NCBI GenBank assembly: GCA_963793305.1
Contig: CAWBZV010000011.1
Span: forward strand, 1-64,000
Direction: 5' to 3'
DNA length: 64,000 nt
Source of the DNA: an uncultured Gemmatimonadales bacterium
Lineage (GTDB): Bacteria > Gemmatimonadota > Gemmatimonadetes > Gemmatimonadales > Gemmatimonadaceae
Part shown: positions 2,951 to 60,941 of the stretch, one piece after another
How positions within the stretch are numbered: position 1 is the first letter of the stretch
Layout of the letters: each line of letters starts with the position of its first letter
Notes under the pieces: generated by a model
Seen by the model: the letters and a program-made list of their open reading frames with translations, nothing else
Database searches by the model: none
What the model was told of the DNA's origin: nothing
Translations under genes and position numbers: made by a program

Positions 2951-2986
2951 CATCCTGGGCCGGCGGTCCGGCCCGGCCGGTTTTCT

Positions 2987-3059
2987 GCCTCGGTAGCTCA
3001 GTGGATAGAGCGAGTGCCTCCTAAGCGCTAGGTCGCAGGTTCGATTCCTGCCCGGGGCA
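2987..3059 (+). tRNA. tRNA-Arg(CCT), CCA not encoded
   Basis: Acceptor stem GCCTCGG/CCGGGGC, anticodon loop CT-CCT-AA, GGTTCGATTCC T-arm. Confidence 0.95.
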
Positions 3060-50854: not shown

Positions 50855-51782
50855 CTGGAGCGGCGACGGAGTCAGCGCACTCCCGCCCAGTGTCGACGCG
50901 ACGGTCGTCACGGTCGGGACGTTCGACGGTGTGCACCGCGGTCACCAGGCGGTGCTCAGCCGCTTAGCCGCGCGATCCCGCGAGACCGGATGGAAGGGCG
51001 TGCTCGTCACGTTCGAGCCGCATCCCTTGGAGGTCGTCAATCCAGCCGCCGCGCGGCCGCTCCTCACGGTGGGGGCCGAGCGACAGGAAGTGCTCGCCGA
51101 GAGCGGAATCGACTATTGCGCGGTGGTACCGTTCACGCCGACGCTGTCACACTACACGGCCGAGCAGTTTGTCGAGGCCGTGCTGCTCGAGCGATTTCAT
51201 ATGCGCGAGCTGCTCAGCGGCTATGACAACGGCTTCGGCCGCGGGCGCGAGGGCGATGTCGAGACGTTGCGCGCGATCGGCGTCCGGCGCGGGTTCCGCG
51301 TTGAGGTCGTGCCACCAATGAGTGGCGACGACGGGCGTCCGATTTCGTCGACGTCGATTCGCCGCGCGGTCGCCGGCGGAGATCTTCGTAGCGCCGCCGC
51401 CGGACTCGGCCGGCCGTATTCGGTCAGCGGCGTCGTCTCGCGCGGTCACCAGCGGGGACGAACGATCGGCTATCCGACGATCAACCTGCCGTTACCATCG
51501 CCGCGGAAACTGTTACCACCGGAGGGTGTGTATGCCGTCCGCGTGCAGACACCAGTTGGCCCGTTCGGCGGCATGATGAACCTTGGGCCCAGGCCCACGT
51601 TCGGCGAGACCGAGGTGACGCTCGAGGCACACTTGTTCGACGCCAACGCCGACTGGTACGGCGCGCACGTCCGCGTTGAGTTCATCGCGCGACTCCGCGA
51701 CACGCAGAAGTTCGACGGTATCGACGCGCTCAAGGCGCAGCTCCGGCGTGACGAAGAGCATGCGCGCCGCGCGTTGGCGTAA
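50841..51782 (+). CDS. ribF: Bifunctional riboflavin kinase/FAD synthetase
   Basis: FDGVHRGH, ISSTSIR, GRTIGYPT, EAHLFD. Confidence 0.96.
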   Translation: MMPSDWSGDGVSALPPSVDATVVTVGTFDGVHRGHQAVLSRLAARSRETGWKGVLVTFEPHPLEVVNPAAARPLLTVGAERQEVLAESGIDYCAVVPFTPTLSHYTAEQFVEAVLLERFHMRELLSGYDNGFGRGREGDVETLRAIGVRRGFRVEVVPPMSGDDGRPISSTSIRRAVAGGDLRSAAAGLGRPYSVSGVVSRGHQRGRTIGYPTINLPLPSPRKLLPPEGVYAVRVQTPVGPFGGMMNLGPRPTFGETEVTLEAHLFDANADWYGAHVRVEFIARLRDTQKFDGIDALKAQLRRDEEHARRALA

Positions 51783-51815
51783 CGGCGCGACGTGAGGATG
51801 ACAGCCGTCGCGCGG

Positions 51816-51850
51816 TGATGTTGCAACCGTGCTGTCCCGCTATTTAGTAT
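51816..51850 (+). promoter_or_regulatory. Promoter of ncRNA copy A
   Basis: TGATG-TTGCAA-18 bp-TAGTAT, conserved with copy B while the spacer diverges. Confidence 0.75.
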
Positions 51851-51974
51851 CGCTCATCGCGAAATCGCTCCACTTCGCTGCACAAGAGAAACGGTCAACC
51901 ACGTGACGAGCGTGGTTGTATTTCTTAGGCGATGGGGAGGGTGGTGCCTTCTAGCTATCTCGCCCGGAAATATC

Positions 51975-52047
51975 GAGCGGATAGTTTAGTGGCAGAACGC
52001 ACGACCTCACCAATCGCGAAGCGTCGGTTCGATTCCGATTCCGCTCT
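51975..52047 (+). other. Non-canonical tRNA-like cloverleaf inside copy A
   Basis: Acceptor GAGCGGA/TCCGCTC, D-arm GTTT-AGTGGCA-GAAC, 9-nt anticodon loop CCTCACCAA, T-arm GTCGG-TTCGATT-CCGAT; followed by CCG. Confidence 0.85.
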
Positions 52048-52176
52048 CCGTTTCAAGTGCAACGTTGCGCGACTTCTTGGGCGTAGCTATTGTTGATGCG
52101 TCGAGGGGGACGGGGGCCTGGTAAGCCCTGCGCATTGCGCAACGAAGCCCTAGACTGGAGGGCTGACTGTCCGCTC

Positions 52177-52211
52177 CGAGAGGCCGCTGCAAGGCGGCCT
52201 CTCGTTATTTT
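52177..52211 (+). terminator. Intrinsic terminator of copy A
   Basis: CGAGAGGCCGC-TGCAAG-GCGGCCTCTCG-TTATTTT. Confidence 0.85.
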
Positions 52212-52219
52212 GGCGAGCG

Positions 52220-53683
52220 CTAGAGGTAGGGCTGTGCAAGCCAGGCCGCGGCGTCGCGAAGGCGGTGCAGTAGCGGGCGGCGTTCCAGGTCTTCGATCGT
52301 CAGCTGCTTTCCGGTGGCGATCTTGTTGTCGAGGATCGATGACAGGCGGCACGCGAGCGGGCGCGAGTAGCACTCGACGTTGAGCTCGAAGTTGAGGCGC
52401 AGGCTGCGGGGGTCGAGGTTGGCCGAGCCGATGAGCGACCACTCGCCGTCGACGATCAATAGCTTCGAGTGATCGAAGGGGGGCGCGGAGAGATACACGC
52501 GACATCCCCAGGCCAGCACCTGGGGGAGCTGGGCGGTCATCGCCCATTGCACCATGCGCAGGTTGCCGTGCTGCGGCAGCACGATATCGACCTGGACGCC
52601 GCGCAGCGCCGCGACGCGCAAGGCGTCGATCAGTGGCGGGTCGGGCAGAAAGTACGGCGTCGACAGCCGAATCGATTGCGTGGCGGCCGCGGTCGCGCCG
52701 AGGATCACCATCAGCAGCGTCTCGAAGTTGGTGTCGGGGCCGTCCGGAATCGCGCGCGCGGTTACGTTGCCGCCGGCCGCGGGAGTCTCGGGTGCCCAGG
52801 TCGACTCCGGCAGGTGCTCGTGCGTCGTGAACTCCCAGTCGACGGCGAAGGCCTGCATGACCTGGCGCACTACGGGTCCGCGCATGCGGAAGTGCATGTC
52901 CTGCGTGGCGTCCGGGCGGTGCAGGGCCAGGATGCACTGGTCGCGGACGTTCATGCCGCCGCAGAATCCGATCGTGCCATCGACGATCATCATCTTCCGA
53001 TGATCGCGCAAGTTTATGTATGGGTGCGGGAAGGGCAGCACCGACGGCAGAAACCGCGCGACGGTCACGCCGCGGCGTTTGAGCTCGTCGACGATCGGCG
53101 GATGACTATATCGAGCGCCGACGCCATCGATGAGCACGCGGACGGCGACACCGCGCTTGGCCGCGCGCGCGAGCGCGTCGACGAACTGCTCGCCCGCCTG
53201 GCCCCGGTCGAAGATGTACGTCGCCAAGGCCACGGTTCGCTGGGCCCCGTCGATCGCCGCCAGCATCGCGGGGTACGTCTCATCGCCATTGAGCAGCGGT
53301 TCGATCGTACATCCGCCCGCCAGCGGCAGTCGTGTCACCGTTCCGGCGATGCGCGCGACTCCGTGCATCGCGGGTGACGCCTCGCTCAACAGCTTGCTCT
53401 GCGCCGGCTCGGCGCTCGTCCCGCGCATGAGCGCGGCGCGGTCGGCCGGGTCGAGCGGCGGTCCCTTGCGCATCGGGCCCGGTTGGCGGTTGATGCGGTT
53501 GATGCCGAACACGAGATAGAGGGCTGAGCCGAGGATCGGCGTCAGCCAGACGAGACCGATCCAGCCGATGGCCGATCGAACGTCGTCTTTGGTCAGGAGG
53601 ATGTGCGCGCTGACGCCGACGGCCAGGATCACGTGACCGGCCGCGATCAGGCCGGCGATGACTGAAGGCGTGGAAAGCATCAC
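52220..53683 (-). CDS. cls: Cardiolipin synthase (PLD family)
   Basis: N-terminal TM pair and two HKD motifs (DHRKMMIVDG, DHSKLLIVDG); SLRLNFE. Confidence 0.92.
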   Translation of the reverse strand: MMLSTPSVIAGLIAAGHVILAVGVSAHILLTKDDVRSAIGWIGLVWLTPILGSALYLVFGINRINRQPGPMRKGPPLDPADRAALMRGTSAEPAQSKLLSEASPAMHGVARIAGTVTRLPLAGGCTIEPLLNGDETYPAMLAAIDGAQRTVALATYIFDRGQAGEQFVDALARAAKRGVAVRVLIDGVGARYSHPPIVDELKRRGVTVARFLPSVLPFPHPYINLRDHRKMMIVDGTIGFCGGMNVRDQCILALHRPDATQDMHFRMRGPVVRQVMQAFAVDWEFTTHEHLPESTWAPETPAAGGNVTARAIPDGPDTNFETLLMVILGATAAATQSIRLSTPYFLPDPPLIDALRVAALRGVQVDIVLPQHGNLRMVQWAMTAQLPQVLAWGCRVYLSAPPFDHSKLLIVDGEWSLIGSANLDPRSLRLNFELNVECYSRPLACRLSSILDNKIATGKQLTIEDLERRPLLHRLRDAAAWLAQPYL

Positions 53684-53701
53684 CGTCCGAAACTACAACG
53701 A

Positions 53702-53736
53702 TGATGTTGCAACGGCGCCCCCTCGCTATCTAGTAT
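53702..53736 (+). promoter_or_regulatory. Promoter of ncRNA copy B
   Basis: TGATG-TTGCAA-18 bp-TAGTAT. Confidence 0.75.
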
Positions 53737-53865
53737 GGGCTTCCGCGAAAACGCTCCACTTCGCTGCGCAAGAAAGGAACGGTCAATCACACCTGGTAAG
53801 TGTGGTTGTATTTCTTGGGCGAAGGGGAGAGTCGCGCCTTCTCGCAGTCCCGCCCGAGAAATATC

Positions 53866-53936
53866 GGGAGAGTAGTTCAACGGGAGAACAATCGACCGCG
53901 AATCGAGAGATGCCGGTTCGAATCCGACCTCTTCCA
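53866..53936 (+). other. Non-canonical tRNA-like cloverleaf inside copy B
   Basis: Acceptor GGGAGAG/CTCTTCC with G3:U70, D-arm GTTC-AACGGGA-GAAC, anticodon loop CC-GCG-AA (C33), T-arm GCCGG-TTCGAAT-CCGAC; followed by CCG. Confidence 0.85.
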
Positions 53937-54063
53937 CCGTTTCGTGTGCAACGTTGCGCAGATGTTCGCTGATGCGTATTGTTGATGTGTCGAGGGCGAC
54001 GGGGGGCAACGCAAGCTCCTGCGCTGTGCGCAACGAACCCCTGCGACTGGTGGATCAGTGCCC

Positions 54064-54098
54064 CGAGAGGCCGCTCAGAGGCGGCCTCTCGTTATTCT
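54064..54098 (+). terminator. Intrinsic terminator of copy B
   Basis: CGAGAGGCCGC-TCAGAG-GCGGCCTCTCG-TTATTCT. Confidence 0.8.
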
Positions 54099-54143
54099 GT
54101 CCCGCCTTGCGGGGTTCCGCCTGGGACGATAACCTACAAAGCT

Positions 54144-55865
54144 ATGTCGAATTTGAGGATACGCATCGCCATCGTCCTGGCGCTCATCGGCTTGTCACTA
54201 TGGGCGTTATGGCCGCGCAAAGCGACAGAAGCGCGGCTGTCGAAGGCGGGAGAAGTGCTCGTCGACACGACGACGGGTCTGACGGAGCTCGACACGGTCT
54301 GGCGCATTCCTATTAAGGAAGGGCTCGACCTCCAGGGCGGGATCCACATGGCGCTCGAGGTCAACCAGGACCACGGGACAGTGCCGAACATCAGTGATGC
54401 GATTGATCGCGCGGTGACCGTCGTGCGGACGCGCATCGACCAGTTTGGCGTGGCGGAGCCCGTGGTGCAGAAGGTCGGGAGCGATCGCATCATCGTCGAG
54501 TTACCCGGCGTGAGTGACCCCAAGCGGGCGCACGATATCGTCTCGCAGTCGGCGTTCCTCCAATTCCAGATCACCGACAAGACCGAGGCCCTCGAAAAGG
54601 CGATTCCGCGGATCGACGCGGCGCTCAAGACCGCGAGGATCGCGAACGTTGCGGGTGCGGCGCAGGCGCCTAGCGCGGCTGGCGGTCAGCAACAGCAAGG
54701 GATTCAGGGTCTCTTCACTGGCCCCAATGACACGACGAAGAAAGGCAAGACTGGGGGCGCGAAGCACGATTCGACGACGGCCGATACCGGGTCGCTCGCC
54801 AACACGCTGACCGGCGGCGCATTCTCGAAGCTCGTGCAGCCGACGGGGCAGATGCCAGGCGAGTACTACGTCCAGAGCACGGATGTCCGGTTGGTCCAAC
54901 GGTACTTGGCGGTGCCCGATGTGCAGGCGGCGCTGCCTCCCGGCAAGTCCGTTCGGTGGTCGGCCGACACGGTCGTCCTCGGCGGGCGCGTCTATCGTCC
55001 GTTCTATGTCGTCGACACCCGCCCGATCATTACTGGCGAGTATCTGATCGACGCGCAGCCCGCGAGCGATCCGGTCGAGGGCACGAAGGTCGAGTTTACG
55101 CTGAATCGTGAGGGCGGCCGTCGGTTCCAGACGGAGACCGCCCGGCACGTGAAGGACTATATGGCGATCGTGCTCGACACGCTCGTCATGGGGCGGCCGC
55201 CGATCATTGAAGGCGCGATCGGCACCCGCGGACAGATCACCATGGGTGGGCGTGATCTCCAGGCGGCGCAGGACCTGGCGCTGGTGTTGCGCGCGGGCGC
55301 GCTCCCGGTGCCGCTCAAGATCGTCGAGGAGCGCGCGATCGGCGCGAGCCTCGGGACCGACTCGGTGCACGCGGGGATCGAGGCGGGGATTATCGCGGTG
55401 GCGCTCGTCGTGATCATCATGCTCGTGTATTACAAGTTTTCTGGATTCCTGGCGGTGTGCGGTCTGACGTTGTACATGCTGTACACGTTGGCGGCGCTCG
55501 CCGGATTCGATGCCGTGCTGACCCTCCCCGGGCTTGCCGGGTTTGTGCTCTCGATCGGTATCGCGGTCGATGCCAATGTGCTGATCTTCGAGCGCATTCG
55601 AGAGGAGCTCGATCACGGGAAGACGCCACGGCTCGCGATTGACGAAGGCTTCCGGCACGCGATGAGCGCGATTATCGACTCGAACGTGTCCACCGTCCTC
55701 ACGGCGGCCGTCCTGTATCAGTATGGCAGCGGGTCCGTTCGCGGGTTCGCCGTGACCTTGATCGCGGGCATCCTGGCGTCGATGGTCACGTCGATCTTCG
55801 TCGTCCGGACGTTCTATATGATCTGGCTGACGCGCGCCCGCGGCGCCCAAACGATCAGCATCTAA
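54144..55865 (+). CDS. secD: Protein translocase subunit SecD
   Basis: GLDLQGG, RIDQFGVAEP, LRAGALP, AVDANVLIFERIREE. Confidence 0.97.
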   Translation: MSNLRIRIAIVLALIGLSLWALWPRKATEARLSKAGEVLVDTTTGLTELDTVWRIPIKEGLDLQGGIHMALEVNQDHGTVPNISDAIDRAVTVVRTRIDQFGVAEPVVQKVGSDRIIVELPGVSDPKRAHDIVSQSAFLQFQITDKTEALEKAIPRIDAALKTARIANVAGAAQAPSAAGGQQQQGIQGLFTGPNDTTKKGKTGGAKHDSTTADTGSLANTLTGGAFSKLVQPTGQMPGEYYVQSTDVRLVQRYLAVPDVQAALPPGKSVRWSADTVVLGGRVYRPFYVVDTRPIITGEYLIDAQPASDPVEGTKVEFTLNREGGRRFQTETARHVKDYMAIVLDTLVMGRPPIIEGAIGTRGQITMGGRDLQAAQDLALVLRAGALPVPLKIVEERAIGASLGTDSVHAGIEAGIIAVALVVIIMLVYYKFSGFLAVCGLTLYMLYTLAALAGFDAVLTLPGLAGFVLSIGIAVDANVLIFERIREELDHGKTPRLAIDEGFRHAMSAIIDSNVSTVLTAAVLYQYGSGSVRGFAVTLIAGILASMVTSIFVVRTFYMIWLTRARGAQTISI

Positions 55866-60847: not shown

Positions 60848-60941
60848 GGGGGTGGATGGGGCCTGGTGGTCCTCTCGGTCTTCAAAACCGCTGCGACCCG
60901 ACTCGTTCGGGTTTGGTGGGTTCGATTCCCACGCGCTCCCG
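60848..60941 (+). tRNA. selC: tRNA-Sec(TCA)
   Basis: Anticodon loop CT-TCA-AA, 6-bp D-stem, long variable arm GACCCGA/TCGGGTT, G discriminator; adjacent to selD. Confidence 0.93.

Follow-up and report, generated by a model that had tools for sequence, protein, structure and literature searches.

What purpose could a complete tRNA fold serve inside a larger bacterial RNA in which both its anticodon loop and its 3' end appear to be paired to the surrounding scaffold? The question is raised by a 64,000-nucleotide (nt) stretch of DNA, referred to here as the window (contig CAWBZV010000011.1, positions 1 to 64,000, of assembly GCA_963793305.1), from an uncultured Gemmatimonadales bacterium of the family Gemmatimonadaceae. 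Two tRNA-shaped modules, at 51975-52047 (copy A) and 53866-53936 (copy B), are each embedded in a unit of ~365 nt which consists, in order, of an upstream motif, a leader of ~125 nt with the helices P0, P2 and P3, the tRNA module, a trailer of ~165 nt with the P5 domain, and a terminator. The two units, both on the plus strand, are paralogues (75% identical), and a third copy was not found in the source genome (5.72 Mb in 26 contigs, 92% complete). Together with seven homologues (L043, L045, L046 and L048-L051) they make up a set of nine distinct units, on which the comparative results below are based; all nine derive from one small clade of soil Gemmatimonadaceae and are thus not independent of one another. 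In the reading favoured here, held with evenly balanced confidence, the two paralogous RNAs each enclose a tRNA-shaped domain that is clamped by its own scaffold and does not decode.

The tRNA-shaped domains

Matches to the Rfam tRNA model (RF00005), ARAGORN calls, pairing counts and base-level features all identify the two modules as tRNA-shaped. Copy A scores 47.6 bits (E 4.5e-7) and copy B 57.2 bits (E 1e-9) in a search of the 64-kb window, both above the gathering score of 29, while two ordinary tRNA genes in the window (at 2875 and 2987) score 65-67 bits. The modules of the homologues score 51.8-67.6 bits, and the whole set of units spans 47.6-67.6 bits. A permissive Rfam scan of 51700-54200 returned, besides tRNA, only weak matches well below the gathering scores. 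The sequence-only reading had expected pseudo or undetermined calls from ARAGORN; the program instead reports a determinate tRNA-Val(cac) for copy A and tRNA-Arg(gcg) for copy B, and returns '???' for only one of the seven further homologues.

Base by base, the modules agree in every detail with what had been read from the letters. Both carry U8-A9, a D-loop GG and a UUCGA T-loop (TTCGA in the DNA), and their 7-bp acceptor stems differ in sequence (GAGCGGA/UCCGCUC in copy A, 3' strand at 52040-52046; GGGAGAG/CUCUUCC in copy B, 3' strand at 53929-53935). The anticodon arms are degenerate, as had been proposed: copy A has a 9-nt loop, CCUCACCAA (52005-52013), and an A28.C42 mismatch in the stem, and copy B has the loop CCGCGAA (53896-53902) with C33. 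To these can be added two further mismatches in copy B, A27.G43 in the anticodon stem and C50.A64 in the T stem. Copy B does combine G3:U70 with A73 (53936), the alanine identity set pointed out earlier, whereas copy A has G3:C70 with U73 (52047). Across the nine units, position 3:70, the only place within the acceptor stem where G:U is found, varies between G:U, G:C and A:U; N73 varies between A and U, and two units have a mismatch at 1:72. As G3:U70 with A73 is present in only five of the nine, alanine identity is not a feature of the family.

Both modules end in N73-CCG rather than N73-CCA, as the earlier reading had stressed. The lack of an encoded CCA is in itself normal for this genome, in which only two of the 51 canonical-length tRNA genes encode it. 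What is unusual is a tail with CC and no A: CC at positions 74-75 occurs in those same two genes versus all nine modules.

The fold is maintained across the homologues. The cloverleaf and scaffold helices are 96.0% paired over 656 cells in the nine units, with compensatory change in 14 of 73 pairs; none of 500 shuffles reaches the observed value and slid registers reach 38-49%. The cloverleaf stems (7/4/5/5 bp) are 95-100% paired, five of the seven acceptor pairs show compensatory change, and U8, A14, G18G19, R15:Y48 and a UUCRA T-loop are found in all nine units. The tertiary pair 15:48 covaries, being G:C in five units and A:U in four, which argues that the L-shape itself is under selection. 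This covariation, together with the conservation of the scaffold, upholds the earlier description of tRNA-shaped modules within a conserved scaffold. The further proposal that the modules are interchangeable cargo holds insofar as acceptor sequences vary widely while the scaffold is kept and the flanks are better conserved than the module, but not insofar as it implies exchange with canonical tRNAs. Although canonical tRNA-Val(CAC) and tRNA-Arg(ACG) genes are present elsewhere in the source genome, the best identity of a module to any genomic tRNA is 66-74%, no closer than tRNAs generally are to one another, and the modules are 66-97% identical among themselves. The modules thus diverged in place, with acceptor, anti-acceptor and specifier (the latter two described below) co-evolving, and were not swapped in.

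Contacts between the scaffold and its own tRNA

Three pairings, each with covariation across the aligned units, tie the scaffold to the tRNA domain in its own chain. The first involves the anticodon loop. The leader hairpin P3 (51919-51972 in copy A, 53809-53863 in copy B), supported by its P3a and P3b pairs, presents in its apical loop a 5-nt specifier, UGGUG at 51942-51946 in copy A and UCGCG at 53832-53836 in copy B, which complements CACCA (52008-52012) and CGCGA (53897-53901) in the respective anticodon loops. In every unit, five bases of the anticodon loop complement five bases of the P3 apical loop at a fixed aligned position. The specifier UGGUG faces CACCA (copy A, L051) or UACCA (L049), UGAUG faces CAUCA (L048, L050), UCGCG faces CGCGA (copy B) or UGCGA (L045, L046), and UGACG faces UGUCA (L043). 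All 45 cells are paired, 41 of them Watson-Crick; only three of 20000 permutations of the partners reach 45, and slid registers give 12-30 of 45. In the register of the six sequences fully handled by the counting tool, 39 of 39 cells are paired, none of 500 shuffles matches this, and slid registers reach 15-67%. In the window copies the complementarity ends after exactly five pairs on both sides, as expected for a loop-loop helix.

The loops engaged in this contact are for the most part ill suited to decoding. Their length is 7, 9 or 10 nt, and only L045 and L046 have a loop of canonical form, with 7 nt, U33 and a purine at position 37 (CUGCGAA). Their anticodon stems are perfect too, and their scores of 67.2 and 67.6 bits equal those of the genuine tRNAs in the window. 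The remaining seven modules depart from decoding geometry, six because their loops span 9 or 10 nt and carry a pyrimidine or an odd base at the U33 site, and copy B because of C33. Homologues with canonical anticodon arms, which the sequence-only reading had taken as the sign of ordinary or decaying tRNA genes, thus exist in part of the set only. Since the complement to P3 is kept in nine of nine units versus a canonical loop in two of nine, selection acts on the contact rather than on decoding, and decoding by both window copies is unlikely. The same pairing argues against the suggestion that the modules are decoys for anticodon nucleases, because the loop that would serve as bait is base-paired, with covariation, to the loop of the RNA's own P3.

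The second contact holds the 3' end. That the CCG tail pairs into a scaffold helix had been noted from the window alone, and the nine homologues bear this out. The sequence CCG-UUUC, directly following the module (52048-52061 in copy A, where it is followed by GUGCA, the 3' strand of P1a), pairs with GAAACGG in the leader of copy A (P1b 5' strand, 51888-51894, within 51879-51894) and GGAACGG in copy B (53776-53782); the P1a 5' strand of copy A lies at 51879-51883. In copy B the CCG-UUUC and GUGCA strands, and then the P5 domain, occupy 53937-54035. Helix pairing counts show P1b to be paired in 98.4% of cells, with compensatory change in three of its seven pairs, the outer three, while G76 is invariant and has leader C92 as its partner. 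P2 and P3 lie between P1b and G1, which makes the acceptor stem one arm of a four-way junction.

The third pairing, which like the loop-loop contact goes beyond the earlier reading, competes with the second. Around 105 nt downstream of the module lies an anti-acceptor, UGG-N' followed by 7-12 nt, which complements the acceptor 3' strand, N73 and CCG (helix P6). In copy A this is UGGAGGGCUGA (52156-52166; 8 contiguous pairs, 10 of 11 in total), complementing the acceptor 3' strand, U73 and CCG, and in copy B UGGUGGAUCAG (54048-54058; 7 contiguous, 9 of 11). Across the units 92.6% of 81 cells are paired and four of nine pairs show compensatory change (11 cells), with none of 500 shuffles reaching this and slid registers at 26-58%. 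The base N' complements the discriminator N73 in all nine units (A:U in seven, U:A in two), and the anti-acceptor begins with UGGN' in eight and CGGN' in one. Contiguous P6 lengths are 8, 7, 7, 16, 6, 10, 16, 12 and 10 bp, the 16-bp helices of L043 and L051 reaching through the 3' strand of the T stem. U70 has A as its partner in P6 and G3 in the acceptor stem, from which it follows that the anti-acceptor complements the 3' strand and is not a copy of the 5' strand. P6 can form only when the acceptor stem and the CCG portion of P1b are open, which leaves the RNA with two possible states. In constrained folding the P6 state is the lower in energy in seven of the nine units, with a margin of 2.5-14.7 kcal/mol over the state with the tRNA and P1b; copy B (+7.2) and L045 (+0.4) show the opposite order.

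A complement to a tRNA 3' end that starts with UGG, combined with a second contact at the anticodon loop and unwinding of the acceptor and T arms, recalls the retroviral primer-binding site. A 3'-end complement and an anticodon-loop contact are hallmarks of retroviral primer selection, as with the A-rich loop of human immunodeficiency virus type 1 (HIV-1) and tRNA-Lys3. The module could accordingly be a primer tRNA and the anti-acceptor its primer-binding site, for reverse transcription or another templated extension, to which the perfect complements of up to 16 nt in L043 and L051 would be well suited. The unit, in contrast, pairs in cis, over 7-16 nt rather than 18, and belongs to a bacterium; an RVT_1 reverse transcriptase was not found in the 92%-complete source genome, the neighbours are housekeeping genes, and the unit sequence patterns had no match in viral contigs. 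We know of no bacterial tRNA-primed retroelement, and this explanation is extremely improbable.

The units in their genomic setting

Each unit has the ends expected of a transcription unit. The upstream motif TTGCAA-18 nt-TAGTAT (51821-51850 in copy A, 53707-53736 in copy B), a putative promoter, has both hexamers invariant in all nine units. A sigma-70 consensus scan did not flag it in either copy, and its promoter role is for that reason an inference. A terminator scan places intrinsic terminators at 52177-52213 (copy A; a 12-bp stem followed by UUAUUUU) and 54064-54099 (copy B), and the motif and a strong intrinsic terminator accompany each other in nine of nine units, which suggests that the two window units are stand-alone and independently transcribed.

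Among the other scaffold elements, the hairpin P0 (GCGAA/UUCGC; 51859-51878 in copy A and 53745-53764 in copy B, at the start of its leader, 53745-53863) has five pairs that are invariant in all nine units and so offers no covariation evidence. Its loop (..GCUCCAC.., 51864-51873 and 53750-53759) resembles a tRNA-Ala-type 3' end (UCCAC) and complements the anti-acceptor (UGGUGGA/UGGAGG). By eye this pairing is possible in every unit, with no clean covariation, and the P0 loop may be a third competitor for the anti-acceptor. P2 (51896-51918 and 53784-53808; eight pairs, 100% of cells paired, one compensatory change) is followed by UAUUUCUU, and the two together (51896-51926 and 53784-53816) resemble an intrinsic terminator, also by score, inside both leaders, the U-rich stretch doubling as the 5' strand of P3; this could be an early termination point. 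The P5 domain (52063-52144 in copy A) has a closing helix, CGUUGCGC/GCGCAACG, and inner hairpins; its helices P5a, P5b and P5c are 91-100% paired with few compensatory changes, and the segment has one orientation in all nine units. Within the P5 closing strand (52060-52071 and 53949-53960), GCAACGUUGC forms a perfect 10-nt palindrome, kept in seven of the nine units, through which the RNA could dimerise. When further covarying helices were sought by a scan, none beyond those reported was convincing. A small open reading frame was also considered and set aside: by eye only, none is common to both copies, between which a 2-nt indel shifts the frame.

The gene order at the locus is truB, ribF, unit A, a PLD-type cardiolipin-synthase-like gene on the opposite strand (52220-53683, minus; Pfam PLDc_2 1.2e-43, PLDc 3.6e-15), unit B and secD. 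Copy B lies ~50 nt upstream of secD, and no gene follows copy A on its strand. The terminator of unit A abuts the stop codon of the PLD-type gene, and the start of that gene (~53680) is only ~30 nt from the -35-like hexamer of unit B (53678-53712), so its promoter and 5' untranslated region must overlap unit B in antisense.

The distribution is narrow by every search made. R1, a covariance model that describes the leader, derives from two sequences; because the structure assigned to it automatically is poor, it acts mainly as a sequence model and may miss distant homologues. R1 matches three of the six genomes of the genus. At E up to 0.1 it matches five of 151 genomes of the family, strongly in the source genome (G000), G457 and G493; the weak matches in G162 (24.1 bits) and G444 (22.7 bits) have no tRNA alongside and were treated as noise. 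In a phylum sample of 151 genomes R1 matched G000 itself and none of the 150 others, and a BLAST search with copy A against 201 genomes of the order matched G000 alone. A 23-nt pattern allowing up to three mismatches gave, outside G000, only matches with two or three mismatches in 401 phylum genomes, and a reversed-pattern control also matched many genomes. The large sequence collections were scanned by exact pattern only, whereas R1, which models part of the unit, was run over ~450 distinct genomes. An exact 21-nt pattern occurred at four loci in genome contigs, including the same two relatives, which are metagenome-assembled genomes (G457 and G493), and two proteobacterial metagenome-assembled genomes that lack an R1 match and were taken as chance; in metagenome contigs it occurred at ten loci, eight on related contigs and two without an R1 match. 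Two patterns searched against viral contigs gave no match.

Synteny around the units is conserved in the relatives, and single units are missing from it. G457 has an empty A site (L054, ~2964-2991), where the gap between ribF and the PLD-type gene measures 27 nt by tblastn coordinates and ~20 nt from stop codon to stop codon, and G493 has an empty B site (L055, ~2964-3011), with the starts of the PLD-type gene and secD ~47 nt apart. A metagenome contig (L044:1-1530) carries a remnant at the A site beside the PLD-type gene, in which deletion of the tRNA and P5 has joined P2 and the 5' portion of P3 to the region just ahead of the anti-acceptor, from which it follows that units can decay by internal deletion. 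The empty sites and the remnant together indicate a copy number of one or two, with units cleanly gained or lost. A mobile element was considered in view of this clean presence and absence; neither terminal repeats nor target duplications were seen by eye at the empty sites of G457 and G493, and the idea was rejected. Of the listed sequencing runs that contain the stretch, none is recorded as RNA. The DNA contigs of four sequencing runs were also examined and added little beyond one contig of run X8 (record 29, aligned to window 53668-54140), in which the scaffold of unit B aligns on both sides and the 85-nt module is replaced by 87 letters that cannot be aligned at 80% likeness. In this relative, too, divergence is faster in the module than in the scaffold.

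Such losses are what would be expected if the units were duplicated tRNA genes in decay, their alike flanks reflecting recent duplication and the complementarities being due to chance or to a DNA inverted repeat. Degenerate loops, a narrow clade and complementarity that in a single genome is at chance level (see below) would fit this explanation as well as the lost copies and the remnant do. Speaking against decay are the flanks, which are more conserved than the module, the covarying 15:48 pair and the compensatory changes in the acceptor stem, P1b, P6 and the loop-loop helix. The G.U pairs inside P6 suit pairing of RNA rather than identity of a DNA repeat, and P5 keeps a single orientation throughout. 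This rival is already disfavoured and is very improbable.

Other tRNA-related loci were encountered in the same genome. A tRNA-Sec gene lies in the window at 60848-60941 (Rfam, 65.7 bits), so the source organism probably makes selenoproteins. ARAGORN also reports three 87-nt 'tRNA-Ala(cgc)' genes on the minus strand of G000 (C3:451773-451859, 636248-636334 and 709201-709287) and further over-long calls at C3:412684, C3:616291, C12:141242 and C14:171327; these represent either false positives or a repeated element that folds like a tRNA.

Possible function and relation to known RNAs

The pairings suggest how such an RNA might work. Folding co-transcriptionally, it would enter the tRNA state, in which the P3 apical loop would mask the anticodon loop through the 5-bp loop-loop helix and the N73-CCG-UUUC tail would be locked into the leader-trailer helix P1b. 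These clamps would keep the module from the ribosome, the synthetase and the 3'-processing enzymes, while the elbow and the T arm would stay accessible. The anti-acceptor could then invade, capture the acceptor 3' strand and unwind the acceptor (and T) arms, and the competition between acceptor and anti-acceptor would gate whether RNase P and other tRNA-recognising enzymes see a tRNA. The net role would be the inhibited storage, or the controlled processing, of the RNA, a function proposed from the pairing patterns. Among the roles suggested earlier, signalling to RNase P or RNase Z and a ligand for elbow-binding proteins are possible. The observations of the sequence-only reading are thus confirmed and its interpretation is partly supported.

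Several points weigh against the self-clamped, non-decoding reading. Related sequences can beat shuffles in such pairing counts without any structure, as the counting tool itself cautions, and only four specifier classes exist among the nine units. The P6 complementarity of the window copies alone (10 of 11 and 9 of 11) is within what chance allows: eight of 62 genomic ARAGORN tRNA calls, copy A included, are followed within 400 nt by a complement of 10 of 11 or better, and the case for P6 therefore rests on covariation among homologues at one aligned site. The invariant CCG is a partner in P1b as well as in P6, and the data would not discriminate between the two helices in vivo. The first anti-acceptor position is U in eight of nine units (U370), a better partner for a mature A76 than for the encoded G76, which hints at recognition after CCA addition. 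Lastly, L045 and L046 have fully canonical modules (67 bits), as would be expected of a releasable tRNA.

These last two points favour a different account, that of a caged pro-tRNA whose anticodon and 3' end stay hidden in a structured precursor formed by the scaffold. RNase P and 3' processing would free a tRNA of ~75 nt, and CCA would be completed; where G3:U70 and A73 are present, charging by alanyl-tRNA synthetase (AlaRS) could follow, for non-ribosomal use or for regulated mistranslation (alanine at CGY codons by the forms with GCG). The presence of G3:U70 and A73 in five of nine units, with the acceptor G:U confined to 3:70, is consistent with this account. Precedents exist on both sides of it: 'inhibited storage' has been proposed for the tRNA embedded in GOLLD RNA, according to an excerpt of PMC12990946, and natural mistranslating bacterial tRNAs derived from tRNAPro, in which acceptor identity and anticodon disagree, are described in part of PMC10404621. 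Copy B, L045 and L046, which join G3:U70/A73 with a GCG anticodon, resemble the latter; those are free tRNAs, however, in contrast to the scaffold-enclosed modules with their mostly non-canonical loops. Against release stand the seven of nine modules that depart from decoding geometry, the unconserved identity elements (N73, 3:70 and 1:72) and the fast-evolving acceptor stems, which are hard to reconcile with a fixed synthetase. In addition, CC at tRNA positions 74-75 is an anti-determinant for RNase Z. Release as a pro-tRNA is thus unlikely, if the most substantial of the alternatives set out here. A bolder reading, to be considered improbable, treats the unit as a 'tRNA cage': a potentially mis-decoding tRNA, with an Ala-type acceptor and an Arg-type or other anticodon, would be kept inert by the reading in cis of its own anticodon and acceptor end, and be released or destroyed via the acceptor/anti-acceptor switch. 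If true, this would provide for conditional mistranslation or a non-ribosomal aminoacyl donor.

Recognition of a tRNA at two points by base pairing is best known from the T-box (RF00230), which the unit resembles in its specifier-anticodon pairing, in a UGGN-NCCA contact with N tracking the discriminator, and in having an intrinsic terminator nearby. An 'ultrashort' ileS T-box that keeps only the anticodon and NCCA contacts, and likewise has no elbow platform, is described in an excerpt of PMC12990946. A trans-acting sensor of this type, in which the specifier loop and UGGN' would bind a free tRNA, either the released module or a canonical one, would have as its output terminator read-through into secDF (copy B) or antisense transcription into the cardiolipin-synthase-like gene (copy A). 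The position of copy B close upstream of secD is in keeping with this, as is its anti-acceptor UGGUGGA, which fits the UCCACCA ends of the genomic canonical tRNA-Ala (with CCA appended to the gene) as well as its own module. Unlike a T-box, the unit has its tRNA in cis, a specifier in an apical loop with five nt paired, and a complement that continues for another 7-12 nt into the acceptor and T stems, the 10-16 bp reached there exceeding the NCCA reading of a T-box. It is not upstream of an amino-acid gene, and copy A has no gene downstream to control. There is also no antiterminator competing with the terminator: the sequence that would sequester the anti-acceptor overlaps the terminator stem by approximately one base, so none is evident. 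The specifier triplets and N' fit the unit's own module in all nine cases and, by the usual identity rules, show no consistent fit to canonical tRNA identity. The T-box covariance model matched nothing in 51700-54200 at E up to 10 and nothing genome-wide at E up to 0.1; homology to T-boxes was rejected on this ground, and sensing in trans is quite improbable. Together with the decaying duplicates, the primer device and explanations not listed here, it makes up a remainder that is, as a whole, rather unlikely to hold the answer.

Other structured RNAs share one or another trait with the unit. GOLLD RNA, like the unit, is a structured bacterial RNA with an embedded tRNA; the unit is far smaller (~365 nt) and stands in a housekeeping context rather than in tRNA arrays or prophages, and pairing of the scaffold to the anticodon loop and the 3' strand is not mentioned for GOLLD in the excerpt of PMC12990946 referred to above. 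GOLLD, ROOL and the other Rfam 15 families, tRNA excepted, gave no match above threshold. In the long non-coding RNA MALAT1, part of PMC8457004 describes a leader-trailer helix that abuts the tRNA-like structure of mascRNA and influences its processing; that RNA is eukaryotic and has neither an anticodon-loop contact nor an anti-acceptor.

Non-decoding tRNA-like modules within larger bacterial RNAs are also found in YrlA (RF02553) and in transfer-messenger RNA (tmRNA), where, unlike here, the module has no full anticodon arm. tmRNA carries G3:U70/A73. The source genome already has a tmRNA (C5:1411777-1412137, 104.7 bits; ARAGORN -m found none), and a role of the unit as a tmRNA substitute was rejected for that reason. 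A TROVE (Ro60/Rsr-like) gene of G000 (C3:291579-292845; L090) is preceded by a 125-nt stretch that scores 51.3 bits with the tRNA model, with a large insertion, and 20.5 bits as YrlA-like, below the gathering score of 69; this stretch probably encodes a bacterial Y RNA that includes a tRNA-like domain. The unit, in contrast, has ribF, the PLD-type gene and secD as neighbours, with the TROVE gene on another contig, and did not present itself as a YrlA or Y RNA. Given the genome's own tmRNA and the weak YrlA-like match beside the TROVE gene, the unit replaces neither.

RNAs that recognise a tRNA at two points (T-boxes and retroviral leaders) and large RNAs that embed a tRNA (GOLLD) are thus known separately, while an RNA with covarying two-point recognition of the tRNA in its own chain is absent from Rfam 15 and was not found in the literature searched. 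For annotation, the units carry a warning, as ARAGORN and Rfam take their modules for ordinary tRNA-Val and tRNA-Arg genes. In these Gemmatimonadaceae, the unit would offer a compact, sequence-defined model of a tRNA fold switched by strand competition, with co-evolving contacts at the anticodon loop and the acceptor end, and a directly testable case for the 'inhibited storage' of embedded tRNAs.

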